A stretch of DNA of 64,000 nt. Origin: a virus. Under the pieces are notes generated by a model. The model was not told where the DNA came from and did no database searches. It saw only the letters and a program-made list of their open reading frames with translations. Position 1 is the stretch's first letter. The number at the start of each line of letters is the position of its first letter. Shown piece by piece: positions 1 through 63,077 of the stretch. Both the position numbers and the translations under genes were made by a program. Location: positions 1-64,000 of IMG/VR virus record IMGVR_UViG_3300020125_000051, one strand, 5' to 3'.

Positions 1-751
1 CTAACGGCATTATTTTCCTCTCACACTCTTTTAATTTAAAGCTACTTACGAGGTTTACGAGCGCACCATGGTCGTTTTGCATAACTGAATATTGCGGATA
101 CCAATTGAACTTCTATGTCTCCGTTAAGAGATTTTACTCCAATTGGAATTCGCTGATTAGTCATTATAAGCAACCATACGTACCTAGTCTTCATCCGGTT
201 CAGTGGTAAGTATCCATGGTCCAAATTGGACACTCCAACCATAGGAGCTTCTAGAAATACCAAATCCCCAAATGCCTTTATACGTTCTATATGTTCTAAT
301 CTTGATCATAGAAAGGTTGCCCCATCCATTCATTGCCGGCCGCATCTATGTGCGTCTTACCTCTGTGATCCATGTCTAGAACACAGTGGTTACCTTCAAG
401 CCTAGGATGTGGCATTCCACACTTTTCTACTTCTCTTTCGCCGAAGTAGTCAAAGAAATCATCTAGTAGTGGTCTGCTGTCCATTTTTCACCTTTCCATG
501 GTATTCTGGGCACGTTCGTTTGTGCTTGATAATACCATCTTTATCTGCTTTTTCGTAACAAATAATACATCTCATGAAATCTCCAATTTCGATCTAATGA
601 GCATTTCCATGAAATAGAACCAGCGCAGCATAAGTATAATCACTGTGCCTAAAGCTTCCATATAAAGTAATGCTAGTACCATGTTATTTTGTCTCCTATT
701 TTAGTTGTGCAACACCACAGATGTCTCTAGTACATCTATGATGCAATACAA

Positions 752-1306
752 CTAACTAGCCTTACGTTGCTCCAATGGTGGCCAAATTGCACCAGGATGG
801 ACCGGACAGCCGGCATCATGCATAACTGAGCATGGACTACCGAAATTGTGGTCAAATCCCAATTCGTGACCAACTTCATGATTAACCACCATGATTGTCC
901 AATCAATTCCTTGCGCCATTTTATTTTTGTTTATGTTTACATAGCGTCCGTCATAAGTGGCGCACGAAACACGGTCATTTTCTGCTTCTGTGGGATATGG
1001 TTTACCACATAGCTCAGCAACATTAGTTTCATTAATTTCTCGAACAATAAAATCTGGACTAGTACCCGGCTTAGCTTGATGAATTCCAGCCCATGACCTA
1101 TCATCGTTCAAAATACAATAAACTTGATCTTCAAAATCAGAAGGACCGAGCGCAATATAACTCAGTCCCCAATTGTTTTTATTAGTACCAGGGTGTGTTT
1201 TACTACATGCAGAATTCTCCGCAATCACTGGTGCGGCTACTGTTTTCATAGGACCACAGGCAGTAAGTAGAAAAAGCACACAACCTAGTAAAATTCTAAG
1301 TTTCAT
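752..1306 (-). CDS. Lipoprotein zinc metallopeptidase (metzincin/matrixin, DUF3152-like)
   Basis: Lipobox LLTAC, HEVGHELGFDH zinc motif, Met-turn SVMH. Confidence 0.8.
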   Translation of the reverse strand: MKLRILLGCVLFLLTACGPMKTVAAPVIAENSACSKTHPGTNKNNWGLSYIALGPSDFEDQVYCILNDDRSWAGIHQAKPGTSPDFIVREINETNVAELCGKPYPTEAENDRVSCATYDGRYVNINKNKMAQGIDWTIMVVNHEVGHELGFDHNFGSPCSVMHDAGCPVHPGAIWPPLEQRKAS

Positions 1307-1524
1307 TCCAAAACTTTTCCAATTCTACTGGATCAATGGCAAGCTTCACCATTAAATCATGTTTCAAAGTAGCACGCCTAATCTCAATTTCATCTTCAAA
1401 ATTTAGCTTAGCGCGCCTTATGTACAATCGTTGGATGTCCTTAATGTCAATTTTCACTTTGGTTTCCTTAATATAGTTAATTGTACAACACAGTACTCAG
1501 TTACCTGAGTACCATGCAATGCAA

Positions 1525-2232
1525 TTAACTACCAATGGATTTGCGAGTTGTTCCACCTACGCGAGTCTGACCGATGTCAGCGTTTCTACCAGCAGTAGAA
1601 CCAGCCGCGTAAGCGCCAGCATGAGTAGCATAACTCTGACCAATTTTACTTGTTCTCGGGTATGCCTCGCGGAACATGTTACGTACCGCAACAGACTTCT
1701 CCATTAGTACAATATCCATCCCGCTGGATTCAGTCCGTACTTCATTCTGAGCGCGCGTGTACGCATCACGTACCCGCTGTGAAACAGTAGCCGCATAACC
1801 AGCAATCCAGGAGTGATTAAACGTCTTGCCGTGCACTCCCTTTGGCTTTACTGCACTAGCTAGCCCGTTGTTCATCTGAATGATCAACGAACCATAGAGC
1901 ATAAATACTCTCTCCTGATCATTCTCGAATCCGAATACACGAACGCGAGTGTGATCATCGATAACAATACTTTCACAACCAAAAGCCTTACCAATGTGGT
2001 AAAGAATTTTAGCCTTAGCCAATGCATAGGGTGCTGGAATCCGATAGGACAGATCCACCAACTTATAAGTTGGCTTTGCTTGTCCAGCTTCTAGCATGGC
2101 TTCTTCGATGCCATGCTTAGCCATCAGGAACGTAATCTTATCTACGATAGCGTTACGCTCATCTAGCGAAGTTGCCGGATCCTCTGCCTTAGCCATCAGC
2201 TTAAGGATAATATCTTTCCAATTCTTTTCCAT
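1525..2232 (-). CDS. DUF2786-domain protein
   Basis: N-terminal ILKLMAKAEDP...LMAKHGI pattern and C-terminal AYAAGSTAGRNADIG. Confidence 0.7.
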   Translation of the reverse strand: MEKNWKDIILKLMAKAEDPATSLDERNAIVDKITFLMAKHGIEEAMLEAGQAKPTYKLVDLSYRIPAPYALAKAKILYHIGKAFGCESIVIDDHTRVRVFGFENDQERVFMLYGSLIIQMNNGLASAVKPKGVHGKTFNHSWIAGYAATVSQRVRDAYTRAQNEVRTESSGMDIVLMEKSVAVRNMFREAYPRTSKIGQSYATHAGAYAAGSTAGRNADIGQTRVGGTTRKSIGS

Positions 2233-2310
2233 TTTTATCCTTTGTTAGTATTTTATCCATTTTTAGTAGTGCAACACCACGCTGGTTTTCACCAGCATGA
2301 TGCAACGCTA

Positions 2311-2757
2311 CTAAATCTCGATCTCTATAATGCCTTCTAGCGCATCTTCAGCATCATTTAGTGCTTTTTTGCGGTCGATCAATTCCTCACCCAAATCTGG
2401 GTTTGCAATGACCCAGCGCACATGAGCCTCAAACTTATCAAAGTCGCTAGTCACACAATAGAAAATACTCTGAGCTTGTTCTTCAGTCAAGCCAAGAGTT
2501 GCCATTGCTGCATCTTCGAAAGAATATGCGTCACTGCCGTCAGGCATTAGTGGCCTATAACCACCATGAGCACGATCATTCACTTTGATTCGATTAGTAA
2601 GAAACTGGGCAGTACCAGCAAAGCAAAACGTTGACTTGCAAAGATCAACATTACCATCATTCCCATATTCTGGGATTACAAACAAGTTTTGATCCCACTG
2701 GTTACGATGTGCACGAATCCAGTCAAGCGTCTGCTCTACCAATTCCAAATTTACCAT
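2311..2757 (-). CDS. Hypothetical phage protein
   Basis: ORF with AAGGA RBS; WDQ...CKSTFCFAG motif. Confidence 0.65.
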   Translation of the reverse strand: MVNLELVEQTLDWIRAHRNQWDQNLFVIPEYGNDGNVDLCKSTFCFAGTAQFLTNRIKVNDRAHGGYRPLMPDGSDAYSFEDAAMATLGLTEEQAQSIFYCVTSDFDKFEAHVRWVIANPDLGEELIDRKKALNDAEDALEGIIEIEI

Positions 2758-2845
2758 TACTTATCCTTTGTTAGTTTTATTCCATTCCAATTTAATCGTG
2801 CAACACACTGTCTGTGGCAAATCCCACAGGCAGCATGCAACGCGA

Positions 2846-3037
2846 CTAACCTGATACCTTCGCGTTAATTGCAGTATTCACCAATTCTTCAACTTCATCT
2901 TTTGGAAGATTCAGTCTTGTCATTAGGTCTTCAATCATGTTATCATGCCATGTCCAGACCATAATGTTGAAGTGGCGAACCTCAGTTTCTACAATGTTGT
3001 CAATTTCTTCTGGTGTTAGTTGTTTCTTTGTTGCCAT
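2846..3037 (-). CDS. Hypothetical protein
   Basis: GAGG RBS; stop codon lies in a family-1 hairpin. Confidence 0.6.
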   Translation of the reverse strand: MATKKQLTPEEIDNIVETEVRHFNIMVWTWHDNMIEDLMTRLNLPKDEVEELVNTAINAKVSG

Positions 3038-3112
3038 TTTACCTCTTTTTTGTTATGAAAACACATAATTCCATAGCAACTGCAAAAAGAAGTATTCCTG
3101 CAATTGTCCAAA

Positions 3113-3370
3113 TTATTCCCATTTTGCTTTGTTCTGAGAAATATGTGTTCCACGAGATTTAAGCATCATTTCCAAGTTATCTACTCGGATCTGTGCCTGC
3201 TCCCATTCACGATCACGTCTAACGTCTTCATATTCCATCGCGTCGCCACCAGTAATGCATTTCGTGCAATACTTAGGTGGTCGACCACGTCGAGACGGAA
3301 TCATGAAGATTTCATTACATGCATTGCAGAATAAGCTCATTAGCTTTTCTGGAACTTCAACTGTTGTCAT
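3113..3370 (-). CDS. Small zinc-ribbon protein
   Basis: CNAC...RRGRPPKYCTKC. Confidence 0.6.
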   Translation of the reverse strand: MTTVEVPEKLMSLFCNACNEIFMIPSRRGRPPKYCTKCITGGDAMEYEDVRRDREWEQAQIRVDNLEMMLKSRGTHISQNKAKWE

Positions 3371-5987: not shown

Positions 5988-6755
5988 TTACTCGTTGTCG
6001 TCTTCATTGTCCGCTTCGACCGGCTTGCCGGACTTCTTAGCCTTAGCTGCCTTTTCAGCTTCCTTGGCTGCCATGTCCGCATTGAACCGATCCGTTGCTT
6101 CCTGAATAGTCGTCGAAACCTGATCAACGTCTACGCTCTGCTCCTTAAGGAATCCCTGGTACTTCTCGATCAGCTTAGTAGTCTGTTCCTTACGACCAGT
6201 CCATAGCGCAAGCCGGGAACTAGTGTAAAGATCCTTGTACACCGCTGCGCCGAGAAGCGACAGGTTATCCTCTGCGGTGCGCGAGCTAGCGCGCTGGGCA
6301 CCGGTACCACGAGTAGACAAGCGCTCCTTACGGTTAGTCCACCATTCGGTAGCCTCATCACGCTTGATGTAAACTCGCGGTTCAGCATCATCCGGACCCT
6401 TCACAAGAATGTGCGGGATCCGCTCACGCTGAGCCTTGACAGTCTGGTAAACAGACTGCGGAACGACATAGTCATTCGCGTCAAGGTCCAGACCAGCGGT
6501 GATCTTAGCCTTCATTAGGGCCTGAGTCATGTGTGCAGCGAATTCAGTAACCGACATGGCGCCGTCCGGAACCTCTGCAACAGTCTCCACAGGAGCATCA
6601 ACAGTAGCGTCGCCGCTTCCGTCGGTTGCTGAATCCTGCGAATCACCACTAGTAGCTTCGGTGACGTTTTCGGTAGAAGTGTCGTCGGTTGCGGTAGAAG
6701 TGCCCGCAGTCTCGATACCCGCGAAAATGTCAACGTCAGTGTTACTCTGGGTCAT
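5988..6755 (-). CDS. Hypothetical protein with acidic N-terminus and charged C-terminus
   Basis: 255-aa ORF, GAGG RBS, more GC-rich than its neighbours, own promoter candidate. Confidence 0.75.
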   Translation of the reverse strand: MTQSNTDVDIFAGIETAGTSTATDDTSTENVTEATSGDSQDSATDGSGDATVDAPVETVAEVPDGAMSVTEFAAHMTQALMKAKITAGLDLDANDYVVPQSVYQTVKAQRERIPHILVKGPDDAEPRVYIKRDEATEWWTNRKERLSTRGTGAQRASSRTAEDNLSLLGAAVYKDLYTSSRLALWTGRKEQTTKLIEKYQGFLKEQSVDVDQVSTTIQEATDRFNADMAAKEAEKAAKAKKSGKPVEADNEDDNE

Positions 6756-6840
6756 TTTGTTGCCTCTCTTGTTTTGTGTGGATCTTGTTTTTTCTTTGGA
6801 TCTTGAGCAGAGTGATCGTCCAGTTTTGAATGACCTGCTC

Positions 6841-6878
6841 TCTGCCTTACATGGTCCATTCTACCATGTAAGGCAGGC
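6841..6878 (-). promoter_or_regulatory. Extended -10 promoter (TGGTAGAAT) inside an inverted repeat
   Basis: CTGCCTTACATGG...CCATGTAAGGCAG palindrome overlapping TGnTAGAAT. Confidence 0.5.
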
Positions 6879-6928
6879 AACATGCCAGTCTATTTTAGCT
6901 GTTTCCCAAGATTTTTTAGGTTAGAAGA

Positions 6929-7840
6929 CTAGAACAGGTGTCCTAGTCGGGTTAGGTGGTCTATGACCTTGATGCCCGGTTTAGCCGGAAAAATGATGTG
7001 TTTGGGTCGCCCGATGTTGCCATCACGGTAGGCACCCAAATTAATCAAACCATACTTAAATAAATAGTTTAGGTCGGTTCGGGCTTTTTGTCTCAAAAGT
7101 GCAGTTGGTACAAATCCTTTCAATACCTGCATTCCTGGTACATGTGAGACATTTAGCATTACAATGTTGAAGTCTTTATCCGGTTCTGCTACTTTTGCCC
7201 GAAAATCACTTAAACGTTGGGCACGCGGCACTAATGCATCTTGTTCACGTTGTGCTTTTTGTTCATTTTGTTCCTTTTGTTCCTTTTCTTGTGCTGTGTC
7301 ACTTGTGTCATATATTGGTGCTTTACCTTCTCTTACGCGGTTTTCGGCTGCATTTATGGCTTTTAGAATTACTTGCAGCATTTTGAGTGATCTGATTGGA
7401 ATAGTTGCTTTTACGAAGAAATCATCGGCGTCGTCCCAAGTGTTAGGATTGTATGCGATATCGTGCCCTGCGCGATCATTTATCTCTCTTATTACGTCTA
7501 TGGCCTGTTCTGCCTTGATTAGGCCATTGTTTACTAATTGTCCGGTTACTGTGCATAACGGTGGATCATAGTATTTGCTGCCGGCTAGGCAGCTTCTGTC
7601 GTGCATTTCCATTAAGTCTTGATTGTTCGAAAGTATCTTTTCGTAACTTACCTGTGGATCTGTGATGTTTAGTGTGTTGTCGTCCGATTTGGCCTGTTGG
7701 GCTAGTTTTAGGTCATAATAGCGTGATTCTAGCCATACGGCTAGCTCTAGGCTCATGTCGCCTAAGTGGTCCGCATATTCTCCGCCTTGTCCTATCTTAT
7801 GGGCGAAAAAGATGGTATCTCCGAGATTTACGATAGCCAT
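6929..7840 (-). CDS. Hypothetical protein (303 aa)
   Basis: Long ORF with AAGG RBS; no family recognised. Confidence 0.7.
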   Translation of the reverse strand: MAIVNLGDTIFFAHKIGQGGEYADHLGDMSLELAVWLESRYYDLKLAQQAKSDDNTLNITDPQVSYEKILSNNQDLMEMHDRSCLAGSKYYDPPLCTVTGQLVNNGLIKAEQAIDVIREINDRAGHDIAYNPNTWDDADDFFVKATIPIRSLKMLQVILKAINAAENRVREGKAPIYDTSDTAQEKEQKEQNEQKAQREQDALVPRAQRLSDFRAKVAEPDKDFNIVMLNVSHVPGMQVLKGFVPTALLRQKARTDLNYLFKYGLINLGAYRDGNIGRPKHIIFPAKPGIKVIDHLTRLGHLF

Positions 7841-8724
7841 TCCGTTACCTTACTCGTGATCTTATTGATAGACATGGGTCGATAGTACATATGTGCTATA
7901 AATCCAGGACAGTCAATATGATTACTGAGCGTTAGTGTGGATCTTGAAAATTGTTACGGAGAGTATTGGTAATTAACGCGCACATACGTGCTAAAAAAAT
8001 CTTTTGACGTGTCAACCGATGGCGCTTAAGGCTCTCGAATCGGACAGAAAACATCCGATCCCGATGCCGTAACCGACCCTAAGTGTACATCTGAAACGCG
8101 CCGACACGGTCACGGTTAGGTTGCAGTGCAGTTAAATAAAATATGAAATATGTTTTGTGATTTAGTGGTGGGTGGTTGGGGTATGAACAAATGCTTTTTT
8201 ACATATAGGGTCGATTAAGGTTTGCAAAAAGATTGCTTTAAAAACAAATGAAATATTTCAGAAGAAACAAATATCCGGTTTGGAAGGATTATTCGGGAAT
8301 TTCTTGCCAGGCATTCCGGGCCTTTTGACAACCTTAGAAAATAGGTATGATGTTCGTTGGTATATGAAAATTGGCATCGTATACGAGAGCAGATTGTGTG
8401 AAATGGGTTGATTGGGTGGGTTTGTCCAGGAAAATCGGACATGTCCGTTTTGGTAGGGTGTCGCGTTTGGAATGGGTAGGTGGTAAGGTCCTTCATTAGG
8501 TTCTTTACGGCAACTTGCCCAACTAATGCCCATCGTGCCCCACTATGCCCCCATATGTCCGTTTTGAAAAAATCTTGCGGGCTGTTTGTCCGACTGGATG
8601 GGAATTGTCCAATTTTTGAGGAGTTGGGTTGGTATGCCCAAATATGTCCGAATTATGACGACCATTCAAGATCATCTATGATCGATGATCTTGAATGATC
8701 GTTACAATTCGGCTTTGTGAGGTT

Positions 8725-9006
8725 CTAGGATGCTTTGTCCTGATTGTCCGATTTGCTGAGTTCACCCCATATGAAGTTATATCCAGCCAATCGGGTGGAT
8801 GTGGACGGACCTGTCCTAGAAAGTCGGGCTTCGGTAGCTTCGTCCGCTATCTGGCAGTCTGTACCTTTCCGGTAGATAAGTCCGACTGCGTTGGGTTTGC
8901 GAATTCCACCCTGCTTTGGGCCGAATGGGTGCTTTGTCCGTTTTCCCTTCTTTTTGGTGGTATAAGGCATTGGAGGTAGATTGGGTGAATTGTCTTCAAT
9001 GTCCAT
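8725..9006 (-). CDS. Basic hypothetical protein
   Basis: GGAG RBS, 93-aa ORF. Confidence 0.5.
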   Translation of the reverse strand: MDIEDNSPNLPPMPYTTKKKGKRTKHPFGPKQGGIRKPNAVGLIYRKGTDCQIADEATEARLSRTGPSTSTRLAGYNFIWGELSKSDNQDKAS

Positions 9007-9204
9007 TTCGTCTCCGTTGTCTTAGTTGATCTTGGTAGCTTGCGCGGCTCACCTGTGGTGGGTGGCTCACGCGGCCCGCTGTACGGGCGTCTGAGCGCTG
9101 TTGATCATGTTGCGGGTACCCTGACCAGGGTCCGCTTAGTTGATCATGTCCTAGACGCTCACAGCCAAGATCCGTACATGCGTGCGGATCATGACTGAAA
9201 CCGA

Positions 9205-9510
9205 CTAGCTGTAAAATCCTGAAATTCGGGTCATTAACCTGATTTTACTTTGATGTCCAGATGTGCTAGAACTGTACTTAACATCTGGAATGACCCATTC
9301 TGTCCCATTATACCATGCAATAGGCGTTTGGTACGAGTAGATCGTATAGACCACATTTGTCGCCTTTAGCTGATCTACTAGGAATGATGGCAAACGTCCG
9401 TATTGATACGGTTTGCACTGAGTGCCCCGTACATTACCAATATCGAACGCTTTGAAGTGATCGATACCAGCTTGCATGGTTTTGAGGGTAGTTCTGCCGT
9501 AAAGTGCCAT
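9205..9510 (-). CDS. Conserved-type phage early protein
   Basis: AGGAG RBS; YSYQTPIAW...YSSSTSGHQS motif. Confidence 0.7.
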   Translation of the reverse strand: MALYGRTTLKTMQAGIDHFKAFDIGNVRGTQCKPYQYGRLPSFLVDQLKATNVVYTIYSYQTPIAWYNGTEWVIPDVKYSSSTSGHQSKIRLMTRISGFYS

Positions 9511-9584
9511 TTTGTACTCCTAAATGTTGGTTTAGGTGGATTTAGTGCAAAACGGAGCAGATGTCCGTTTTGCACTAAATCCAT

Positions 9585-9803
9585 CTAACGTGGCGAGTCG
9601 TACGTATCGAACGACCAACCCCATTTGTCCATTTGTTCGTACTTTGCGTGTGTCCAGTTGATTATGGTAGTAACGTCATCGCTTGTGTCAATTAGGAAAA
9701 AATGGCCGGTTGGTGTTACAATGGCAATTTTGTTCATTTCCGTCTTGACTAGAACGATTGTCCCGTTGTCGGTGGTTGCTACCGCTTCATACCTGTTTGT
9801 CAC
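9585..9803 (-). CDS. Hypothetical protein
   Basis: AGGAG RBS, GTG start, bounded by family-2 hairpins. Confidence 0.65.
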   Translation of the reverse strand: MTNRYEAVATTDNGTIVLVKTEMNKIAIVTPTGHFFLIDTSDDVTTIINWTHAKYEQMDKWGWSFDTYDSPR

Positions 9804-9877
9804 CTTAGTCTCCTAAAGTAGTGAATTAGGTGGACATGCGGCAAAACGGCGCAATGTCCGTTTTGCCTGATCTCTAC

Positions 9878-10102
9878 CTAATTTCCATATGAAGGCATTT
9901 CGCCCCACGTGTCCTGAAGTGAAGGAGAATCGTAGTGAAAGTCGTCTATGTCCTCAAAGTACGATTCGTCCTCTGAGTCCCAATCGCCTTGAATGGTGTA
10001 TTTGTCTTCATAGTCCGATTCGAGAAAATCGTCCTCGTTCATGAAGTATGCTACTCCTATCATGGTTTGATCTGAAATGTCCGTTTCATCCGGTAGTAAC
10101 AT
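9878..10102 (-). CDS. Very acidic small protein
   Basis: Asp/Glu-rich with aromatic residues; AAGGA RBS. Confidence 0.65.
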   Translation of the reverse strand: MLLPDETDISDQTMIGVAYFMNEDDFLESDYEDKYTIQGDWDSEDESYFEDIDDFHYDSPSLQDTWGEMPSYGN

Positions 10103-10187
10103 TTTTATTCCTTTTGTTTGGATTTAGGTGGACATGGAGTGATTGGGATGATAACATCCCAATCAAACCAAATCTACCTAATCGTCA

Positions 10188-10328
10188 TCAATGAGACGGT
10201 TTGTCTTTTTCGTACAGCTTTGTGCTGTCAAAGCACAATTCGTCCTTTTCGTGCTGTCCATCACACATGGGACATGTGAGGCTATTGTACCTTTCTTCCT
10301 CATAATCCCGTTCCTGGTCATTGTCCAC
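10188..10328 (-). CDS. Small CxxC protein (46 aa, not in ORF track)
   Basis: GTG start; MDNDQERDYEEERYNSLTCPMCDGQHEKDELC... Confidence 0.5.
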   Translation of the reverse strand: MDNDQERDYEEERYNSLTCPMCDGQHEKDELCFDSTKLYEKDKPSH

Positions 10329-10582
10329 TGTTTGTCCCCTTCATTACGATCCTGCCCTTCCCTCCCCTTATGACACAATCTAGGTACAATTGCGCCAAAT
10401 CGTCCGATTGAACGGCTTTTGCCCAATTTTTGAGGAATCTATTAATCCTCTTGATTTGAGCAGGTCTGAGGGTAATGCGGTAGTTTCGCATGACTTGTCC
10501 TTATTTGGTTGGGGTTATCCACTTTTAGGTGGATATGAACCAGGATGTCCCTTTTGAGACATCCTGGAACATAAGCACCTAA

Positions 10583-11152
10583 TTAGGCGACATCTGCCAT
10601 TTCGTCCACGATTGCCGGCCCTATGAAGGTTGGTACGGGTTTGGTGCTAGTTGTCCGCTTTGCGGGAACTTTCGGCTTTGTGCTTTTTGCCGCTACTGTG
10701 GCCTTTGCCGGAGTTGTCCGTTTTGCCGGTGCTGTCTGCTTTGTGGTGATCTTGGCGGTTGTCACCTTTTCGATCAATATGCCCGCTGCGAGCAACATTG
10801 GGGCATCTGTGATAAACACGTAGATTACCGCAGTTGTCCAATGTTGTCCGTTTCGTGACACAAAGTCTACAATGTGCCAACCTGACCCATACATGGCGAA
10901 TGCGCAGATTAGACCAAATCCGCCGTATATGACCGTTTTCATCCACTTAGTCCTAGGCGAAAAGTAACTAATCAGATGAGACGATAGAAAAGCCACAACT
11001 GGTGGCAAAGCCGACACAACGATCGAATCCCGGTAAAGTGCACCAGAACGGACATTTGCATAAAGTGAAAATGTCCCACAAATGGCCAATGTCGCGGTTG
11101 CCCACAACTTCCCCTTTTGTGCCTTCGTGCGTGGAATGGACGGAATGCCCAT
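10583..11152 (-). CDS. DUF2637/SpdA-like membrane protein with Lys/Thr/Ala-rich tail
   Basis: Four hydrophobic segments, SLYANV...SALPPV motif, PAKR repeats. Confidence 0.6.
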   Translation of the reverse strand: MGIPSIPRTKAQKGKLWATATLAICGTFSLYANVRSGALYRDSIVVSALPPVVAFLSSHLISYFSPRTKWMKTVIYGGFGLICAFAMYGSGWHIVDFVSRNGQHWTTAVIYVFITDAPMLLAAGILIEKVTTAKITTKQTAPAKRTTPAKATVAAKSTKPKVPAKRTTSTKPVPTFIGPAIVDEMADVA

Positions 11153-11411
11153 TTTAGGCCCCTTTCGCTAGGGAAAGCACGGAATAGGCACAATGTCCTA
11201 TTCCGCACTTTTTCTAGCGAAAGTGCCAAGTATGTACCGATAGAGATGCATATGCCCCTAATTGTGGGCCTGCCGGCAATTGTCCGTTCTATCCCACTAG
11301 CCGGGCATATGCACCTTTAGCGGTACATACCTCCTATCTGTCACTGTTTAGGTCTCAATGTCCGATTCGCCCGCTTCTACCACTTCTGGAATGTTCCGGG
11401 CGACTATGTCC

Positions 11412-11454
11412 ATTATAGCATACCCGATTCGGACATATAGTGCGAATCGGGTAT
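11412..11454 (-). promoter_or_regulatory. Extended -10 promoter (TGCTATAAT) overlapping an inverted repeat
   Basis: Minus strand TATGCTATAAT; arms ATACCCGATTCG/CGAATCGGGTAT. Confidence 0.55.
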
Positions 11455-11536
11455 TTTAAACTGTCGGGTAGCTGACAGTCGACAATATCCGCATATGTCA
11501 GGTTATGTGAAGGTATGACCGATTTTGTCCGATTTG

Positions 11537-11830
11537 TTAGTCTTGCACTACAAAGTACTCAATTTCGCCGATTTCATCGTGAAAGGTCATATCTTCCCAT
11601 TGGTCCGGATCTTCCGAATAGGCCGGATCGTCCTTTATGACCGAAATGTCGTGCAGAACCTGCACAAAATGGTCATAGCAGGACGAATCCGCATCTACTG
11701 CCATCTTCTCGACATTGTCGTACAATTCGGCTACAGCCGCCACAAAAGTGGACGCACTGCCCAAATGCACGTCAATCGGGCCATCCTCGCAAAGGTAATC
11801 AGAATACCCGAAACTCCACGAATCCGACAT
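11537..11830 (-). CDS. Cassette A: acidic hypothetical protein
   Basis: AAGGAG RBS; inside IR pair. Confidence 0.75.
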   Translation of the reverse strand: MSDSWSFGYSDYLCEDGPIDVHLGSASTFVAAVAELYDNVEKMAVDADSSCYDHFVQVLHDISVIKDDPAYSEDPDQWEDMTFHDEIGEIEYFVVQD

Positions 11831-11914
11831 TTCGTCTCCTTTGTATCATTTCGGTCATACCCTCACAAAACCTGACATATCCGGATTTAGACTGCCTTGT
11901 CTCTTTTGTCTTAT

Positions 11915-12187
11915 TTAGTCGAGTTGCCCGATTTTGCAAAGATCGCGCACTCTGTACGGTCCTGTCCCATCTGGATCGATTTCGTCATGCTTTGGGCAGA
12001 TTCGCCACCATTCGACGGTAATGTCCTTTTCGCTCCAATTTGGTGGATTGAGGTTTCCCTCCACATCCGTCACCTTTGTCACGATTCCGACGCATTGTCC
12101 GTCTTCGCACTTTTCGCACCCATCGTCGTATTCGTGGTCTTCGCACGGTGCGTCCCACTTTACGATGGTATCGACCTTAATGTCCAT
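11915..12187 (-). CDS. Cassette B: Cys-containing small protein, paralog of C
   Basis: Start moved to MDIKVD after AGGAG. Confidence 0.75.
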   Translation of the reverse strand: MDIKVDTIVKWDAPCEDHEYDDGCEKCEDGQCVGIVTKVTDVEGNLNPPNWSEKDITVEWWRICPKHDEIDPDGTGPYRVRDLCKIGQLD

Positions 12188-12284
12188 TTTGTCTCCTAAT
12201 GTCCGATTTGGGAGACAAGGCAGTTTAGACCCGGACATGTCTGTCATATCCGGATTTAGGGTGGCATGTCCCTTTTAGGTTAGT

Positions 12285-12557
12285 TTAGTAACATTGTCCG
12301 ATGTCCCACAAAGAGTCCGAACTGTACGTTCCGACCGTTGTGAGGCTTTCCAGGTGATATGGGCAGATTTGCACCCATCGCACCTTTACGTCAAATTTGG
12401 GCTCATTGTCGATAAAGCCCAGCATTGTCAGACTTAGCACTATTCCGATGCATTGGTCCGTTTCGTCCTCTAAAAAGCAGGTTCTTCCTGTTTCGTGCAT
12501 TCCGCTACTTTTAGGAGGATTGTACGGTTGGACCAGGGTTCCTACGTTTAGTCCCAT
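12285..12557 (-). CDS. Cassette C: small protein, paralog of B
   Basis: Start moved to MGLNVG after AAGGAG. Confidence 0.75.
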   Translation of the reverse strand: MGLNVGTLVQPYNPPKSSGMHETGRTCFLEDETDQCIGIVLSLTMLGFIDNEPKFDVKVRWVQICPYHLESLTTVGTYSSDSLWDIGQCY

Positions 12558-12648
12558 TTTGTCTCCTTTTGCGAGACATGCCACCTTAGATCCGGATATG
12601 TCCGAATGTAACCGTTTTAGCCCCACATGTCTGGTTTTGCCTGATTTG

Positions 12649-12873
12649 TTACATCTTGCGAGTAATGACCGGCTCGTCCTCTATGATCTCTACGTCCGTT
12701 TCAGCCATTACGTCCTCGATGCCCTGATTGTCGCGAATGTCCTCAGTGAGGTCTTCGTCCGAAATTTCCTTTTCGGGAAATCCGTCCCATCCGTCCATGT
12801 AGTCGTTAATTTCCATTTCGTACCGGAACGTGATGGTTCGCTCGATAACAACCTTATCGCCAGGCTTGTACAT
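12649..12873 (-). CDS. Cassette D: acidic protein, paralog of H
   Basis: AAGGAG RBS; inside IR pair. Confidence 0.75.
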   Translation of the reverse strand: MYKPGDKVVIERTITFRYEMEINDYMDGWDGFPEKEISDEDLTEDIRDNQGIEDVMAETDVEIIEDEPVITRKM

Positions 12874-12999
12874 GTTTGTCTCCTTTGTCCAATTTGGCCA
12901 GACATGTGGAGTTAGAACGGTTACATCCGGATATGAGCGCTTACGTCCCTTACTCTCTGGAATATCCAGATTTATGGAGCTATGTCTGGGTTGTCCGTT

Positions 13000-13215
13000 T
13001 TAGTCCTTTGCGACGTATCCGCGCCGAACGCGCAGAATGCTAGTTAATGCCCAGAATGTAGTGGTTTGGTCGTCTTCTGACATTTCGTCCGATTTGACGA
13101 TTTCGTCCCATACGTCCTGATACGTCCACGTTGACAGCATTCGTGACTGAATGTCCTGAAATACTGCCCTTTGTACCTTTGGGGTGGCTCGCCATAGTTC
13201 GGGTAGTTTGTCCAT
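13000..13215 (-). CDS. Cassette E: hypothetical protein
   Basis: Start moved to MDKLPE after AGGAG. Confidence 0.7.
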   Translation of the reverse strand: MDKLPELWRATPKVQRAVFQDIQSRMLSTWTYQDVWDEIVKSDEMSEDDQTTTFWALTSILRVRRGYVAKD

Positions 13216-13464
13216 TTTTACCCACTCCTGTGGTGTTTGCCCAGACATAGCCCCATAGACCCGGATATGCCCCCTAGATCCCTCCCCTCCCCATTTGTCT
13301 GAATTAGGAGAAAAATCCAGAAATGTCCGACTCATTTTGAAATGTCCAATTTTTGAGGAAGCTTACGCTTACGCTCTCCTATATCGGGTTTTATCCCGAT
13401 ATATCCGGATATGGACTAGTTTGTCCGGATTTAAGTGGATATGTCCGTTTTGTCTAACTATGTA

Positions 13465-13629
13465 CTATTTGCGGTACCATGCCCCATTATGGTAGTCACA
13501 GTCCGAAATGTACGAATCTTCCGTTATGGCATGACATACCGGATTTGTCGCTATTGCGACGTCTCGTCCGATTAGGACGGCTATGACCACTAAAAGCACA
13601 AATATCATGCTTAGCAACCATTTGACCAT
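13465..13629 (-). CDS. Cassette F: 54-aa single-pass membrane/secreted protein (not in ORF track)
   Basis: MVKWLLSMIFVLLVVIAVLIGRDVAIATNPVCHAITEDSYISDCDYHNGAWYRK; AAGGAG RBS. Confidence 0.7.
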   Translation of the reverse strand: MVKWLLSMIFVLLVVIAVLIGRDVAIATNPVCHAITEDSYISDCDYHNGAWYRK

Positions 13630-13746
13630 TTTTGCTCCTTATGTCCGATTTGTCGGTTTGTGCACCGCGTGGGTAAAACGGACATATCCACATAAACCCG
13701 GACAAACTATGACTTACTACCCTTTGTCGGACATGTCCGATTTGGA

Positions 13747-14007
13747 CTAGCTAACCCGAATTGCGCCGCTATGGGTGATTTCTACCGTTGCGTACCATTT
13801 GCGGTTTGTGTACGGGTTTGGCCCGGTTACGGAGTATTTGACCCCTTTCTCCATTATGTCCAAAGTGCCAGGAATTGTGGCGTTAAACTCCGATGTGCCG
13901 TAAAAATACACGTTTGTCGGATTTGCCGCAATTGCGTCCTTTAGAGCCTTTTTGGTCGGTATGTCCGATTTGTCGGCATTGTACTTTGCGCCCACATTTA
14001 CGTACAT
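13747..14007 (-). CDS. Cassette G: hypothetical phage protein
   Basis: AAGGAG RBS; PTKKALK...VTGPNPYTNRKWYA. Confidence 0.75.
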   Translation of the reverse strand: MYVNVGAKYNADKSDIPTKKALKDAIAANPTNVYFYGTSEFNATIPGTLDIMEKGVKYSVTGPNPYTNRKWYATVEITHSGAIRVS

Positions 14008-14111
14008 TTGTACTCCTTTGTCCGATTTGTGTAGATTTGTCGGACATGCCCGATAAGGGGTAGTAAGTCTGACATATGCTAGTATAGGAGTGTATGTCCG
14101 GTTTGCCTGAT

Positions 14112-14384
14112 TTAGGCTATTTCAACCGAGATGACCGTATCGTCCGCTATGTCCATTGTGTCGGTATAGCCCGAACTGACCGAAATGTCGTTGTTACGGC
14201 ATTCGTCCAGAATGAGATTTTTGACCGAAATGGACTCTTTGTCCGTTCCGTCCAAAATCTCCGCAATGTCCACTTCGTACGCTATTGTCACGATTCGGGT
14301 GATTGTTACCGTTTGTCCGGCTTTGAGCATTACGTCCAAATTGGCCTTATTGCCCTCTTTGTACTCAATGTCCCAAATGTCCAT
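14112..14384 (-). CDS. Cassette H: acidic protein, paralog of D
   Basis: Start moved to MDIWDI after AAGGAGG. Confidence 0.75.
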   Translation of the reverse strand: MDIWDIEYKEGNKANLDVMLKAGQTVTITRIVTIAYEVDIAEILDGTDKESISVKNLILDECRNNDISVSSGYTDTMDIADDTVISVEIA

Positions 14385-14495
14385 TTTGTCCTCCTTCGTC
14401 CGATTTTGGATAAATGGACCGGACATACACCCTTATACTAGCATATGTCATGGTATATCCGGATTTAGGAGCCTATGTCCGTTTTGCACGATCTG

Positions 14496-14801
14496 TCAGA
14501 TAAGCGTTAATTCAGTGGCTCTGACCGTTTTGCCCTCTATGGGCATTAGGTCACCTTCGTCATCTATGCGGCTTATGCGGCATAGGGTCGTTATGACCGA
14601 TTTGCCGTCATTGTCCGCTTCTTCCTGGTATGTCACAGTTGAGAGGATTACGTACTCTTCCTCCCGGTATGTGACGTATGCCCCGATTTGTGGGATTATG
14701 ACTACCAATGTGCTCATTTGCGAAGGTTGGTAGTTTTCGTCCCATTCGCCGGGAATGTCCAGATTTCCGATGATTTTCTGGTTTTCGTCCTGAATGTACA
14801 C
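14496..14801 (-). CDS. Cassette I: hypothetical protein
   Basis: GTG start after AAGGAGG. Confidence 0.7.
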   Translation of the reverse strand: MYIQDENQKIIGNLDIPGEWDENYQPSQMSTLVVIIPQIGAYVTYREEEYVILSTVTYQEEADNDGKSVITTLCRISRIDDEGDLMPIEGKTVRATELTLI

Positions 14802-14896
14802 TACATCCTCCTTTGTCCGATTTTGGCCGGACATAGGCTCTTAGATCCGGATATACCCAGGAAAATCCAGGTTTAGGGTGGCTTGTCCGTTTTGCC

Positions 14897-15127
14897 CTAG
14901 TTAGCTAGGACTCGGGGGATTCGCCCCATCCATGCCGCAAAACCACGAAATGTCATGACATGAGTGGGTTCGTCCGCTATGTCCAGCATGTCCGTTGTCT
15001 GCTCGTTTGGGAAGAATGTCTGGTCTGCCTCGTTTGTCTCGTTTACCACGAAATGTCCGATTTGTGGCACTCCGCACACATTGTCATAGTATAGCACCTG
15101 ATGTACGGAATAACGTGGCTTGTCCAT
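14897..15127 (-). CDS. Cassette J: hypothetical protein
   Basis: Start moved to MDKPRY after AAGGAG. Confidence 0.7.
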   Translation of the reverse strand: MDKPRYSVHQVLYYDNVCGVPQIGHFVVNETNEADQTFFPNEQTTDMLDIADEPTHVMTFRGFAAWMGRIPRVLAN

Positions 15128-15235
15128 TTTTGTCTCCTTTGTCCGATTTTTCCGAAATGTCGGACAAGCCACCCTAAACCTGGATTTTCCTGATTTAGCT
15201 CTTATGTCTCCTTTGTCCGGCATGTCCGTTTTACC

Positions 15236-15397
15236 CTACTTAGTCGCGTAAATCCTGATTTGACAGGATTCGCACCACATGACCGTTTCGCCGAAAATAG
15301 CCCATTCGAGAGCTTCTTCCGGTTTGTCCGGTTTTGCCGGGACCGTCCGATGTGAGCAGTTTGTGCAGTAATCGTACGATTCGGAATACCTTGGCAT
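15236..15397 (-). CDS. Cassette K: small zinc-ribbon protein
   Basis: CTNC...CESC; start MPRYSE after AAGGAGG. Confidence 0.7.
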   Translation of the reverse strand: MPRYSESYDYCTNCSHRTVPAKPDKPEEALEWAIFGETVMWCESCQIRIYATK

Positions 15398-16582
15398 AGT
15401 ATGCCCTCCTTTGTCTCGTATGTCCGATTTTTCGGACATGCCGGATAAGGGAGACATAAGCGCTTCTGTCCGGTTTTCGTCACTTTTGAGTTATTAAGTA
15501 CCGATTTGCACCGCTTCGCCTGTATCCCACCATTTTCCCGACTTGTCGGGATTGTCTAGGATGTCGGTTTCCGCCCGGTCTGGCTCCCTCTAGCCTATCA
15601 TGTCCAGGTCTGTACCGAAATGTCCGGATTTATGCCCATATAATACCCCAAAAAATTCCGACATTTCCGGACATGTCGGAAATGCCCGAAAAAAATGTCG
15701 GCCTTTTCGTGTTAAATCCCCATAAATCGGACAAATCGGACATATCGGGATATAATACCGGTACAAATCGGGGCAAATCGGGCACCCCTTAAAATATGAC
15801 AAATCCGGACATTTCACCATTTAGTGGTAGACTCGCGGCGAAACGGGCGGACATTTCGGGGCATTCGCGACAAAACGGACAAATTGAATCCTCATATATC
15901 CGGATATAGTAGGGCAAATTCGGAGAGTCTAGACTATTCGGACATTTGCCACATATCGGAATGATCAACAGTCCGAAATGTCCTTTTGTAATTAATGATA
16001 TTTCGTGATATGTCCGATATGTACCAAATGTCTGAATGACAAGAATCCGACCCATGCGCATACGTGCATGTTGATCAAGACAAATTGGGCATATGGTGCA
16101 TAACGGACACCCTGGGAGGGTCCTGACATATACCCACAAAACGGACATACCACACATATACACACATATGTGTACATATGTGGATAAAACGGACACGGGT
16201 GGGGTGATTTATCCACATATGATATGGTATGTACACATATGATACGTTATGTTTCATATGTCCGTTTTGTCCTAGTCTGCCCTAGTTTGTCATGATTTGG
16301 AACCCGGACAAAGCCACCCAAAAGCATACAAAACGGACAAAGTTAACTATATTATTTTAAATCATCATAAAATGGACATTCCGGTAGGTCCAACGTAGAT
16401 CGGTGAAGGTTTTTAGTGTTAGTAAATTTACATGGTAATAATCAAGAAATCAAGATATTAGTCCTGAAAATTTTACGAGGATTATCAGAGGTGTTTGTAA
16501 GTTGACAAGATCAAAAAGTTTCTCTTGTCCTCGCTATGGCTAAGGCGTACTCTGAGTTTGGAGTCTATTTGGAGGTGAACGC

Positions 16583-16930
16583 ATGGCGAGCAAAGACCCA
16601 GCAGACCGACCGCCGGACAATTCTGGCCCTTGGGATCCGGATACGGCTCTGAGAAATTTAAATGCTGAACTTGCACTAGGTATGGTTAGTTCTCCTGAGG
16701 AAATGGCTAGAAAGCTATTTAAGGAGAACTTACCAGTTGCCGTCATGGCAATTTGTCATATGGCAACATATTCAGATACCGAAATGATGCGCTTCCAAGC
16801 TGCTAAGTTTGTAGTTGAGCGGACTATGGGTCCGGCCGAGCGCATAATTGCCACAGATAGTCGGCACGCTTGGGATGACATCTACGATAGTGTTACCCAT
16901 GAAGCTGAGAATTATCTTCGGAAGCAATAA
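16583..16930 (+). CDS. Putative terminase small subunit
   Basis: First rightward gene, GGAGG RBS, helical sequence, upstream of TerL; assignment is positional. Confidence 0.45.
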   Translation: MASKDPADRPPDNSGPWDPDTALRNLNAELALGMVSSPEEMARKLFKENLPVAVMAICHMATYSDTEMMRFQAAKFVVERTMGPAERIIATDSRHAWDDIYDSVTHEAENYLRKQ

Positions 16931-17124
16931 TGCATGAAATAGTAAAAAGCGCGGTAACGCCTAAAAGAATAACTACTGAGGAAATAGAACTAGCCAAGAC
17001 ATACTACGATGAACGCTTGACGACCGAAGATAAGCGTTGGGTTAAAGAGCACTTAGAGTTGGCTGGTAAAGCTGCACCACCCGTTGATATTTCTTGGATT
17101 ACACTTACCTGTGGGGGGTGAAAT

Positions 17125-17628
17125 ATGTCAGCACGACGTGGACTTAGGGGCGATAACGTAATTTACCGCCGTTCTAATGGTGAAAGCATGGCTGTTATTC
17201 TGACTGGTGGTCAGGGTGACCCGCCAGCCGCACCAGCAGGTGTGCAGTCTGGATCTGGTGGAACATTAGCTGCTGCTACATATGTGTACAAGAACACATA
17301 TGTTAAAGATGGTGTTGAGAGCCAGCTTAGCGCAGCTAGTAATAACAACGTGACATCTGGCTCGACTTCATCTGTGGCGGTTACGGTAGCAACCGTTGCT
17401 GGTGCGACATCTTACAAGATTTATGGTCGTACTGGTGGTACCTTCCTGTTACTGAATACTATTACTGCCCCAACTGTTCTGTATACAGACACAGGTGCGG
17501 ACACTCCGTCTGGCGCGGCGCCAACGGCTGATTTTAATGCAAGTTTTAGAACACCGTACGCCGGACATGCGTTAACTACTGGTGTTTTGCCAGGCATTGG
17601 TGGTAACCAGTACCAGAAGACAAACTAG
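17125..17628 (+). CDS. FN3/Ig-like virion accessory protein
   Basis: TYVYKNTYV...GATSYKIYGRT...YTDTG, similar to the insert in the major tail protein. Confidence 0.6.
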   Translation: MSARRGLRGDNVIYRRSNGESMAVILTGGQGDPPAAPAGVQSGSGGTLAAATYVYKNTYVKDGVESQLSAASNNNVTSGSTSSVAVTVATVAGATSYKIYGRTGGTFLLLNTITAPTVLYTDTGADTPSGAAPTADFNASFRTPYAGHALTTGVLPGIGGNQYQKTN

Positions 17629-17636
17629 GAGACAAG

Positions 17637-17777
17637 ATGGCACCTAAGAAGAAGGCAGTACCAGCCAAAAAGGCGATGCCTATGAAGGCTGGTAAAGGTA
17701 AAGGTGATGGCACTGACATGGCCGACAGAATGGCAGCACTGCGCGCGAAGCGTGGTAATGGAAAGGCTGGTAAGTAA
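17637..17777 (+). CDS. Lys/Ala-rich microprotein 1 (46 aa)
   Basis: AGGAG RBS; MAPKKKAVPAKKAMPMKAGKGK... Confidence 0.7.
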   Translation: MAPKKKAVPAKKAMPMKAGKGKGDGTDMADRMAALRAKRGNGKAGK

Positions 17778-17917
17778 TGACTATGCCTAAGAAGAAGGCT
17801 GTGAAAGCAACAGCCAAGAAGGTAGTAAAGAAGTCTGCCGGTGCAGCAGTAAAGCGTACTGCGGCTAAGGCAGTTCCACCAGCAGCGAAAGGTTCTGCTA
17901 ACCCAGGCGGTTATTAA
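17777..17917 (+). CDS. Lys/Ala-rich microprotein 2 (46 aa)
   Basis: TAATG coupling; MTMPKKKAVKATAKKVVKK... Confidence 0.7.
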   Translation: MTMPKKKAVKATAKKVVKKSAGAAVKRTAAKAVPPAAKGSANPGGY

Positions 17918-17918
17918 A

Positions 17919-18056
17919 ATGGGTGCCTATGTAGGCGGCGGTTCTGGTAGTGGTGATACTCATATTTCGCAGGTAATAAGCAAAGGTAAGAAAGCTGTTA
18001 AGAAGATTCCCGCGAAAGTGGTGAAGAAAGCAGTTCCTAAGAAGGGAGGTAAGTAA
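17919..18056 (+). CDS. Lys-rich microprotein 3 (45 aa)
   Basis: ...KGKKAVKKIPAKVVKKAVPKKGGK; TAATG-coupled to the next gene. Confidence 0.65.
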   Translation: MGAYVGGGSGSGDTHISQVISKGKKAVKKIPAKVVKKAVPKKGGK

Positions 18057-61228: not shown

Positions 61229-61360
61229 TGGGTTCCTCCTGAGGTACTTTTTCTAACCGCTCAGGTTCTACAGGTGCAGGAGTAGCATCTAGCTTTTCAT
61301 AAACTGCAACTTGAACTACTTCTCCAATGTCACACATTTCATTCCTTTCTAAATATTATG

Positions 61361-61432
61361 TGGACCAGGCAGGAATCGAACCTACGACACGAAGATTAAG
61401 AGTCATCTGCTCTACCATTGAGCTACTGGTCC
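61361..61432 (-). tRNA. tRNA-Lys(CTT)
   Basis: Cloverleaf; anticodon loop CUCUUAA; T loop UUCGAUU. Confidence 0.9.
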
Positions 61433-61493
61433 AATGTTAGCCTACTGCCATGATCATGTCAATAGCCTAACATACATTGATTAATTTAAATAC

Positions 61494-61982
61494 TTAAAAC
61501 CATGTGTAGTAGTCCCAGCGCTTTTCATACATAATAAGCGATGGTACGTAATTAGCTTCAATTTGATGCTTCCACATTAGCATTCGGCCAGTTCGACCGT
61601 TACCATCAACAAATGGATGTATATGCTCAAACCTTACATGTTCATGAATTGGATCTAAGGTGAACCAATTCAACATGTGTGTCAGCCAATCATCCATTCT
61701 TTCTTGAATTTCACGCCAATGTGGACACATTCTGCCACCAACAGTAACATTGTTGACACGGTATGATCCTGCGCCACCAGTTCTAGCCGGTAGTAGATTC
61801 TTCATGATAAGACCATGAAGATGGAGAATCATTTCTCCGGTAAATGGCATTGATTGCTTAATAAGCCATTGCCATGCGACTAAGCTTTGTTCTATTTCTC
61901 TTGGATCTGTAACACTCTCGATTAAATTCGATTGCGTGATATGTTCACGCATATCGAACTCACTCATCATCGTCGTCGTCAT
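61494..61982 (-). CDS. Fic-domain protein
   Basis: HPFVDGNGRTGR. Confidence 0.9.
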   Translation of the reverse strand: MTTTMMSEFDMREHITQSNLIESVTDPREIEQSLVAWQWLIKQSMPFTGEMILHLHGLIMKNLLPARTGGAGSYRVNNVTVGGRMCPHWREIQERMDDWLTHMLNWFTLDPIHEHVRFEHIHPFVDGNGRTGRMLMWKHQIEANYVPSLIMYEKRWDYYTWF

Positions 61983-62326
61983 CTGGATCCCAACCTAGTT
62001 CATCTTCGATTTCTTGTTTAGCTTCATAAAACTGTTCTTTGGCATAGATATCATCCATTTTAGATTGAACACGTATGGGTTCAATACCAAGTACTAGTCT
62101 TTCGTAGTTCATCTTAGATGGCTTACGACATCTACTACAAACCCACAGACCTGATGAAACGTCTAGCGTAAAACCATCTTGTTTCTGCCATACACCTCTG
62201 ATGATACAGTTACACCACGGGTGGATGTTCATTTCCAGTCTGTACACCATCAATAATGTCCAATTCTATTTTTGCCCAATAAGTTTTTGTAGTTCTAGTG
62301 TAATGATCAAATCTACTTTCAACATG

Positions 62327-62399
62327 CACCCGTAACTGGATTCGAACCAGCAACCTCATCCTTAGAAGGGATTTGCTCTATCCATTGAGCTATACGGGC
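62327..62399 (-). tRNA. tRNA-Arg(TCT)
   Basis: Cloverleaf; anticodon loop CUUCUAA. Confidence 0.9.
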
Positions 62400-62546
62400 T
62401 TTTTATTTAGCATTGCAATTTGTTCTTTACGCAGTTTATTGTCTGGCTTATGACCTTTTGCATAACCATCACATTTGTTGCTACCAAGTTCATCTTTCCA
62501 TTTAGTGCCATCCCACCAAATATCAATGGTACATTGCACACATTCT

Positions 62547-63003: not shown

Positions 63004-63004
63004 G

Positions 63005-63077
63005 TATGGATGATGGGAGTCGAACCCATAACTAACAGTTTTTGAAACTGTTTCCTCTTCCATTGGGATACATCCAT
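63005..63077 (-). tRNA. tRNA with CAA anticodon (nominally Leu), short variable loop
   Basis: Acceptor AUGGAUG/CAUCCAU; anticodon arm ACAGU-UUCAAAA-ACUGU; T arm AUGGG-UUCGACU-CCCAU. Confidence 0.75.

Follow-up and report, generated by a model that had tools for sequence, protein, structure and literature searches.

Gene-enclosing stems in a phage gene array: comparative evidence for pairing selected in the mRNA-sense strand

A puzzling question is why a phage should place each of eleven consecutive small genes between the two arms of its own long inverted repeat. The array in question lies on the minus strand at 11,487-15,464 of IMG/VR record IMGVR_UViG_3300020125_000051, a complete phage genome of 81,007 bp with direct terminal repeats, the first 64 kb of which form the window (the whole stretch of DNA that was analysed, 64,000 nt). 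A first-pass annotation of the window had proposed that every one of these genes is held in the loop of an RNA stem. Sequence comparisons establish that the stems exist, are specific and, as judged from the substitutions within them, are selected for pairing in the mRNA-sense strand. The existence of the array is far beyond chance, and reading it as an RNA-level feature is well supported by comparative evidence. The most informative additions to the annotation are a socket-like reassortment of genes and stems and a conserved central C.A/A.C motif.

The eleven open reading frames (ORFs) encode 53-101 amino acids (aa), each has a Shine-Dalgarno (SD)-like motif, and the leader AAATCGGACAAAGGAG is common to most of them. 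Each ORF, together with its ribosome-binding site (RBS), is flanked by reverse-complementary arms of 28-37 nt. Eleven genes, each bracketed by its own inverted repeat, were found where the annotation had placed them. The repeats measure 28-37 bp (26-35 bp in the annotation), and the perfect pair of cassette J, 14858-14889 / 15161-15192, is 32 bp long (31 bp in the annotation). Read along the minus strand, the cassettes are as follows.

15197-15464, minus strand: cassette K; 5' arm 15433-15464, 3' arm 15197-15228, with the central C.A/A.C register; ORF 15236-15397 (minus), 53 aa, CxxC...CxxC
14857-15193, minus strand: cassette J; 5' arm 15161-15193, 3' arm 14857-14889, with the perfect 32-bp stem; ORF 14897-15127 (minus), 76 aa
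14452-14857, minus strand: cassette I; 5' arm 14828-14857, 3' arm 14452-14481; ORF 14496-14801 (minus), 101 aa, GTG start
14070-14450, minus strand: cassette H; 5' arm 14418-14450, 3' arm 14070-14102; ORF 14112-14384 (minus), 90 aa
13711-14069, minus strand: cassette G; 5' arm 14040-14069, 3' arm 13711-13740; ORF 13747-14007 (minus), 86 aa
13417-13709, minus strand: cassette F; 5' arm 13675-13709, 3' arm 13417-13451; ORF 13465-13629 (minus), 54 aa, hydrophobic N-terminus
12959-13271, minus strand: cassette E; 5' arm 13240-13271, 3' arm 12959-12990; ORF 13000-13215 (minus), 71 aa
12598-12934, minus strand: cassette D; 5' arm 12898-12934, 3' arm 12598-12634; ORF 12649-12873 (minus), 74 aa, paralog of H
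12245-12600, minus strand: cassette C; 5' arm 12573-12600, 3' arm 12245-12272; ORF 12285-12557 (minus), 90 aa, Cys-rich
11874-12241, minus strand: cassette B; 5' arm 12212-12241, 3' arm 11874-11903, the outer end overlapping the 5' arm of A by 13 nt; ORF 11915-12187 (minus), 90 aa, paralog of C
11487-11886, minus strand: cassette A; 5' arm 11851-11886, 3' arm 11487-11522, without the C.A/A.C register; ORF 11537-11830 (minus), 97 aa

A genome-wide scan found exactly 11 gene-spanning inverted repeats in the 81 kb, all at 11.5-15.5 kb, and none in five Markov-shuffled genomes. The arms had been said to match their own partners best, and this is borne out by an 11 x 11 RNAduplex matrix, in which the own partner is preferred in 11/11 rows and 11/11 columns, with a mean of -53 kcal/mol (range -45 to -66) for own pairs against -22 for non-own pairs. 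Local intergenic hairpins were considered and rejected, as neighbouring arms folded in this way reach only -14 to -25 kcal/mol in RNAduplex, versus -45 to -66 kcal/mol for the gene-spanning partners. The minimum free energy (MFE) fold of the 1.44-kb transcript from K to H consists of exactly the four abutting gene-enclosing stems that the annotation leads one to expect. Most cassettes do abut, as it had stated: 8/10 junctions in this array abut or overlap, the exceptions being F/E (145 nt) and E/D (24 nt).

The same architecture occurs in ~17 related IMG/VR phage records, including two complete genomes of 75-76 kb. These relatives were found by a leader-word scan of IMG/VR followed by CGGACA-density ranking, and by a terminase-based search. 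Together with the window they provide 112 non-identical cassettes and 94 junctions, to which the counts below refer unless the array of the window is named (G000 is the phage under study; G001, G002, G003, G005, L054, L055, L083, L100 and L117 are related records). The median arm is 30 bp long and the median loop 280 nt, and the ORF occupies 86% of the loop, with 25 nt between the 5' arm and the start codon and 12 nt between the stop codon and the 3' arm. An SD-like motif is found in 101/112 cassettes and is placed 15-45 nt inside the loop, outside the 5' arm; neither the SD nor the stop codon is ever covered by the arms, and the stem brings the stop codon and the RBS within ~40 nt of each other. 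Neighbouring stems abut within 5 nt at 60/94 junctions.

The cassette ORFs are real genes under purifying selection, with dN/dS at 0.2-0.7 in 12 ortholog pairs. The trailers, which run from the stop codon to the 3' arm, close both alternative frames in 14/104 cassettes, compared with 2.9 +/- 1.6 in shuffles, and stop triplets are denser in them than in the leaders (0.070 vs 0.037). This enrichment of out-of-frame stops would make sense if ribosomes have to be prevented from running into the stem. Searches of Pfam and PHROGs returned nothing for ten cassette proteins, and Rfam at E<=1 gave only chance microRNA-like matches.

Selected pairing and a fixed central motif

The covariation that the annotation had suggested looking for among related phages is found. 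Stems around homologous proteins differ by 216 double, pair-preserving changes and by 28 one-sided ones, and a further 37 changes involve a non-pair and fall mostly in a fixed motif described below. Pairing is 94% between own arms versus 43% after arms are exchanged between orthologs, and 93.7% of positions are paired in register, a share that falls to 25-43% once the 3' partner is shifted by 1-3 nt. At most stem positions the pair takes three or four Watson-Crick forms.

The imperfect pairs carry information about the strand on which the helix is selected. Outside positions 13-18, counted from the loop end, there are 98 G.U pairs versus 14 A.C (binomial p ~1e-16; base composition predicts 54% G.U), and the excess of sporadic G.U is visible in nearly every genome. 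Positions 13-18 hold 132 A.C and 20 G.U. For the eleven stems of the window, the annotation had counted 11 G.U pairs, one other mismatch and none of the opposite type. The ~11 G.U pairs stand, whereas the single other mismatch was an undercount, five (GG, UU, CU, UU, GA) being present besides A.C, and the absence of A.C holds only when the conserved central register, with its 12 A.C mismatches in G000, is set aside. The coherent reading of these figures would be a helix in the mRNA-sense strand that tolerates drifting G.U pairs and contains a selected central motif.

The central motif consists of C.A, two base pairs and A.C, i.e., 5'-C-N-N-A-3' on both arms, most commonly CTAA. It is complete in 51 cassettes, with 13 bp on either side, and no cassette has it in the reverse polarity. 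The same motif recurs in the arrays of L054, L083 and L117, whose arms share no sequence with those of the window. These divergent arrays (L083, IMGVR_UViG_3300043313_000586, at 200-3200; L117 at 6260-7361; L054 at 8784-9872) have the same geometry without the shared inner core. The arms of L083 are GATC-rich, and the trailers of all three arrays often hold stops in all three frames, e.g., TAAgTAGtTAAg.

Genes exchanged between stems

Comparison across genomes shows that genes and stems reassort, with the stems forming what appears to be a conserved scaffold of 'sockets', a feature that is new here. In G003 the ortholog of J is 83% identical in protein and, measured between the inner cores, 81% identical in DNA, yet the stems around the two are unrelated, the arm cores being 42% and 50% identical, which is background (0.45 +/- 0.16). 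Arm similarity is likewise at background level in all four ortholog pairs at 80-83% protein identity. The opposite combination is also found: a cassette of G002 and one of L100 have arms that are 82-88% identical around unrelated ORFs, and the arms of E are 95% identical to those of L055_587 while the enclosed proteins are only 44% identical. G-type arms in G002 enclose a J-like protein, and D-type arms enclose a G-like one. Among cross-genome pairs with arm cores at least 80% identical, the two proteins belong to one family in 16 cases and to different families in 80; conversely, cassette pairs that share a family have similar arms in 16 cases and lack them in 95. The first stem type keeps its position beside the promoter leader and holds six different protein families.

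The breakpoints lie at the inner stem boundaries, in the order TGTCCG ... AAAWCGGACA ... ORF ... AAAWCGGACA. Since stem and ORF are uncoupled and the breakpoints are internal, what changes places is the ORF, either alone or together with its RBS, and not the arm-bounded unit. Inversion of whole cassettes, which the annotation had named as the sign of a DNA recombination system, was looked for and rejected, with 0/236 homolog matches between cassettes inverted. Tyrosine (PF00589) and serine (PF00239) recombinases are absent from the complete 81-kb genome. It is possible that the Sak4-like/PD-(D/E)XK module of the phage could exchange ORFs via the short conserved leader and trailer boxes.

What the stems may do

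What could be gained by closing every gene with a stem? The stems are very probably a structural element at the RNA level. The overall explanation that we favour, with real reservations, is that one early mRNA folds into stem-closed translation units and is cut into end-clamped messages, the stems serving as sockets for swappable genes. A promoter near 15.6 kb would drive all eleven genes in a single long mRNA of the early type. About 30 nt before each RBS would pair with about 30 nt after the stop codon of the same gene, and the transcript would thus become a chain of abutting stem-closed loops with one translation unit in each. A dimeric double-stranded RNA (dsRNA) endonuclease, probably host RNase III, would then cut both arms at the central C.A, 2 bp, A.C motif. 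Cutting would free single-gene mRNAs in which the inner 13 bp (-16 to -26 kcal/mol) still hold the 5' and 3' ends together, and ends clamped in this way should be shielded from exonucleases and 5'-end-dependent decay. Relatives retain a given arm pair while recombination at the inner stem boundaries replaces the enclosed ORF.

The cuts made by RNase III are staggered by 2 nt, and the two mismatches, which stand 2 bp apart on the dyad, match this stagger, a geometry compatible with staggered cutting. Actual cleavage of the stems by an RNase III-type activity would, in our judgement, have slightly less than an even chance of being correct. A more elaborate version, in which the array is a two-layer modular system of orthogonal stem sockets that are cut at symmetric C-N-N-A / C-N-N-A sites, yield panhandle mRNAs or circles and have inner boundaries that act as crossover points, so that accessory early genes could pass freely from socket to socket and from phage to phage, is tentative and somewhat doubtful.

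Several observations count against the favoured explanation. The phage has no RNase III, RtcB or dsRNA-binding domain (dsRBD) gene; with none of these genes in the phage, ligated circles are pure speculation. To our knowledge, A.C mismatches are not a determinant for RNase III, and those at the centre of the stem might just as well act as an anti-determinant and protect it from being cut. At 24/94 junctions the outer ends of adjacent stems overlap, so two such neighbours cannot both form fully at once. The array stretch is present in soil metagenomes of ~20 DNA studies, with no RNA run among those listed. Strand-specific wobble is equally expected for a folded single-stranded DNA (ssDNA) site. 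In addition, the mean duplex energy over the cassettes is -47.3 kcal/mol in the sense strand vs -48.2 kcal/mol in the antisense, and once G.U pairs are counted neither strand has a clear advantage in score or fold, because the conserved central register reads G.U/U.G on the antisense. What assigns the strand is therefore the difference between the sporadic mismatches and the fixed ones, and the annotation's claim that pairing is selected in the mRNA survives in part: the sporadic mismatches favour the mRNA sense, but stem energy fails to separate the strands. An antisense reading would need sporadic A.C to be seven times commoner than G.U, and no selected-helix model predicts that.

One alternative is that the stems form in the mRNA and are left uncut, serving as clamps or structural insulators while the RNA stays polycistronic. 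They might block 3' exonucleases and scanning by RNase E, isolate the folding of each cistron and so make the expression of any newly acquired gene predictable, or allow closed-loop re-initiation by ribosomes, the stop codon and the RBS being held within ~40 nt of each other. Covariation, the G.U bias, trailer stops and pairing in register apply equally to uncut stems, the socket behaviour suits an insulating role, and the central A.C mismatches, as anti-determinants, could spare the stem from RNase III. Nevertheless, we consider this alternative unlikely. The strictly conserved, polar and central two-mismatch motif with 13 bp on each side resembles a recognition or cleavage site more than it does a passive clamp, and perfect or near-perfect dsRNA of 30 bp is normally a substrate of RNase III.

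Another alternative is that the arms are DNA recombination sites, folding as ssDNA hairpins with the gene in the loop, in an integron-like or otherwise undescribed cassette system. Pairing would then be selected in one DNA strand, in which the wobble would be G.T, and the central mismatches would correspond to the extrahelical bases in attC. The array does resemble an integron in being a series of promoterless single-gene cassettes with imperfect palindromes, structure-conserving variation, conserved unpaired bases and reassortment. ORFs have moved from stem to stem, the breakpoints falling at the inner cores TGTCCG/CGGACA, and arm type and protein family are largely uncoupled. However, an attC site is a local imperfect palindrome with R and L core boxes at the 3' end of the cassette and requires IntI, whereas here the arms enclose the gene, the loop of 200-350 nt lies well beyond the geometry known for attC, and the complete genome encodes neither family of recombinase. 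The inner cores are conserved in this clade only; L083, L117 and L054 keep the geometry without a core within the array, which leaves nothing for a site-specific enzyme to recognise. Cassettes reassort here as in integrons, but the mobile part is the ORF and not the arm-bounded unit, and the Sak4-like/PD-(D/E)XK module could offer another route for its exchange. The placement of the arms relative to RBS and stop codon, as well as the frame-closing trailers, are translation-aware features. Weakened by the missing recombinase, the lack of a shared core in divergent arrays and this placement, the DNA-hairpin alternative strikes us as improbable.

That each unit is a mobile element with terminal inverted repeats (a miniature inverted-repeat transposable element, a mycobacteriophage mobile element or something transposon-like) or a DNA segment flipped by an invertase is hardly credible, even though inverted repeats flank single genes and gene content differs between relatives, because the arms are private to each cassette where transposase ends would be common, 98 G.U versus 14 A.C would be meaningless in double-stranded DNA, none of the 236 homolog matches is inverted, the genome has no integrase and no resolvase/invertase (PF00239), and the units abut with 0-3 nt and no evident target duplications.

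Related systems and the surroundings of the array

The explanation favoured above, a chain of stem-closed mRNA units, has partial counterparts. In the leader-trailer stalks of rrn transcripts, flanks likewise pair over a long range into a helix of >20 bp around a functional RNA, with serial units per transcript, and the 28-37 bp own-partner stems seen here in the MFE fold reach the length of such long-range helices (at least ~20 bp). There the enclosed RNA is rRNA; here it consists of units of SD and ORF under purifying selection, eleven in a row. Unlike rrn stalks, the stems are also private to the cassette and fast-evolving, with a fixed central C.A/A.C motif, swapped genes inside and a cleavage that is putative. 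The early-region RNase III sites of T7/T3 and the early sites of SP82/SPO1 are similar in that dsRNA elements divide a polycistronic phage early transcript gene by gene, and internal helix mismatches are functionally important in those of T7. Sites of the T7 type are local intergenic hairpins, whereas the partners here lie 200-350 nt apart across a gene.

Other published systems share single traits with the array. The 3' untranslated region (UTR) of the icaR mRNA of Staphylococcus aureus pairs with the 5' UTR, an interaction linked to RNase III, and in this single gene it covers the SD to repress translation (PMC3868564). In the present array the SD is free in the loop and the layout is that of an array. 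In the promoter early stem-loop (PeSL) cassettes of T4-type phages, small accessory ORFs of a plastic early region stand between short conserved motifs; PeSLs are direct repeats, each with an early promoter and a local terminator stem-loop, and are crossover points for modular shuffling (PMC2839356, PMC4122927). The conserved flanks described here may act as crossover points for small early ORFs in a like manner, but no promoter was found for individual cassettes, and the flanks are inverted, cassette-specific and co-varying. The start-associated and extended start-associated sequences (SAS/ESAS) of Cluster K mycobacteriophages comprise a conserved word over the RBS and a linked upstream repeat (PMC3203893; PMC7302621). 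The word AAATCGGACAAAGGAG similarly spans the RBS of many genes in the present case, while SAS/ESAS are short local motifs for which gene-enclosing pairing is not described. A literature search found no published description of gene-enclosing mRNA stem arrays in phages, and in two papers on actinobacteriophage genomics the only repeats mentioned are short and local.

If the favoured explanation holds, one early transcript would give rise to many independently stabilised and insulated messages, with the logic of the rRNA stalk applied to mRNAs, and the stems would represent a class of long-range structure new to bacterial mRNA. The array would be a rack of conserved sockets for fast-evolving accessory genes, plausibly ones for host takeover or anti-defence, and a natural design for insulated multigene expression. 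From the fixed central motif one would predict the position and manner of cutting by a dsRNA nuclease. Early or accessory arrays in uncultured phages could also be found by a sequence-independent signature, namely private 30-bp stems that abut and have C.A/A.C at their centre.

The phage itself is siphovirus-like and encodes a terminase, a Mu/P23-45-type portal and a tape-measure protein, as well as a fusion of PolA and uracil-DNA glycosylase, a primase, an SNF2 helicase, a PD-(D/E)XK nuclease, a Sak4-like AAA_24 protein and ThyX. Among 50,697 phage records, megablast found none that matches the array, and the portal is only ~33% identical to Arthrobacter/Gordonia phages, so that there is no close cultured relative from which to assign a host. 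Contigs of four sequencing runs, aligned to the array at low depth, are identical to the window, without variants or joints; contig breaks coincide with arms, as is expected where repeats exceed the assembler's word length. Arrays are absent from many more distant relatives (terminase 55-60% identical) that have enough flanking sequence, and the cassette architecture thus marks sub-clades.

Features on either side of the array include the following.

15656-15686, minus strand: terminator-like hairpin and T-run, just upstream of the candidate promoter
15592-15602, minus strand: candidate array promoter, extended -10-like CATGATAGGCT (TGnTAnnnT), ~130 nt upstream of the first 5' arm
15465-15591, minus strand: conserved leader after the candidate promoter
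11230-11330, minus strand: 'empty' cassette-type stem of 12 bp, mismatch, 2 bp, mismatch and 14 bp, closing a 45-nt loop that holds no gene
11162-11223, minus strand: local hairpin of 27 bp containing a 2x2 internal loop, immediately 5' of a 189-aa gene (start 11152)

The element at 15592-15602 would be the promoter of the array; it and the following leader are conserved in seven related genomes, and it is the only exact match in the window, with none inside the array. Consensus scans of the array found no excess of promoters or terminators inside it. Downstream of cassette A, the 5' UTR (11153-11486, minus strand) that precedes the 189-aa membrane-like gene (10583-11152) has three long local hairpins (z = -11), and its 'empty' stem has the same two central mismatches as the cassettes. 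An extended -10-like element, TGCTATAAT, stands just after the hairpin at 11411-11463 in this 5' UTR.

Two details concern the arrangement around cassette E. The F/E spacer (13272-13416, 145 nt) has a short local hairpin and a AAATTGGACA leader box and no enclosing stem, and may be what is left of a cassette that has disappeared. If ORF E began at the upstream ATG (13335), it would run through its own 5' arm, but comparison with orthologs favours 13215 as the start.

The word CGGACA/TGTCCG has 89 copies in the genome, almost all in a domain of ~12 kb (6000-18000), mostly in mRNA sense and some within ORFs. Copies of it form the inner stem cores and the RBS leader, and it could be a stoperator-like protein-binding word or an RNA signal. 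Between the array and the rightward structural genes lie ~1.6 kb of apparently non-coding DNA (15470-17100) that are dense in ATGTCCG/CGGACAT in both orientations and contain an inverted pair of DnaA-box-like 9-mers, TGTGGATAA at 16209-16217 and TTATCCACA at 16179-16187 (minus strand). This region is a candidate control region or origin.

The remaining observations come from the far end of the genome. An ORF of 540 aa with TROVE/Ro60 similarity lies at 70300-71900 of G000, outside the window, and array-bearing G001, G002 and G005 have one likewise. The word TATATCC ends several small RNA-like elements beside tRNA genes at 72-78 kb and is also the outer end of many arms (ATATCCGG); that Ro60/Y-RNA machinery of the phage might read the outer, ATATCC-containing helix of the stems is a lead only. 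Four minus-strand tRNA genes (Lys-CTT, Arg-TCT, Leu-CAA and Gln-CTG) adjoin an ORF of the Fic/DOC family (61360-63423; 61494-61982).

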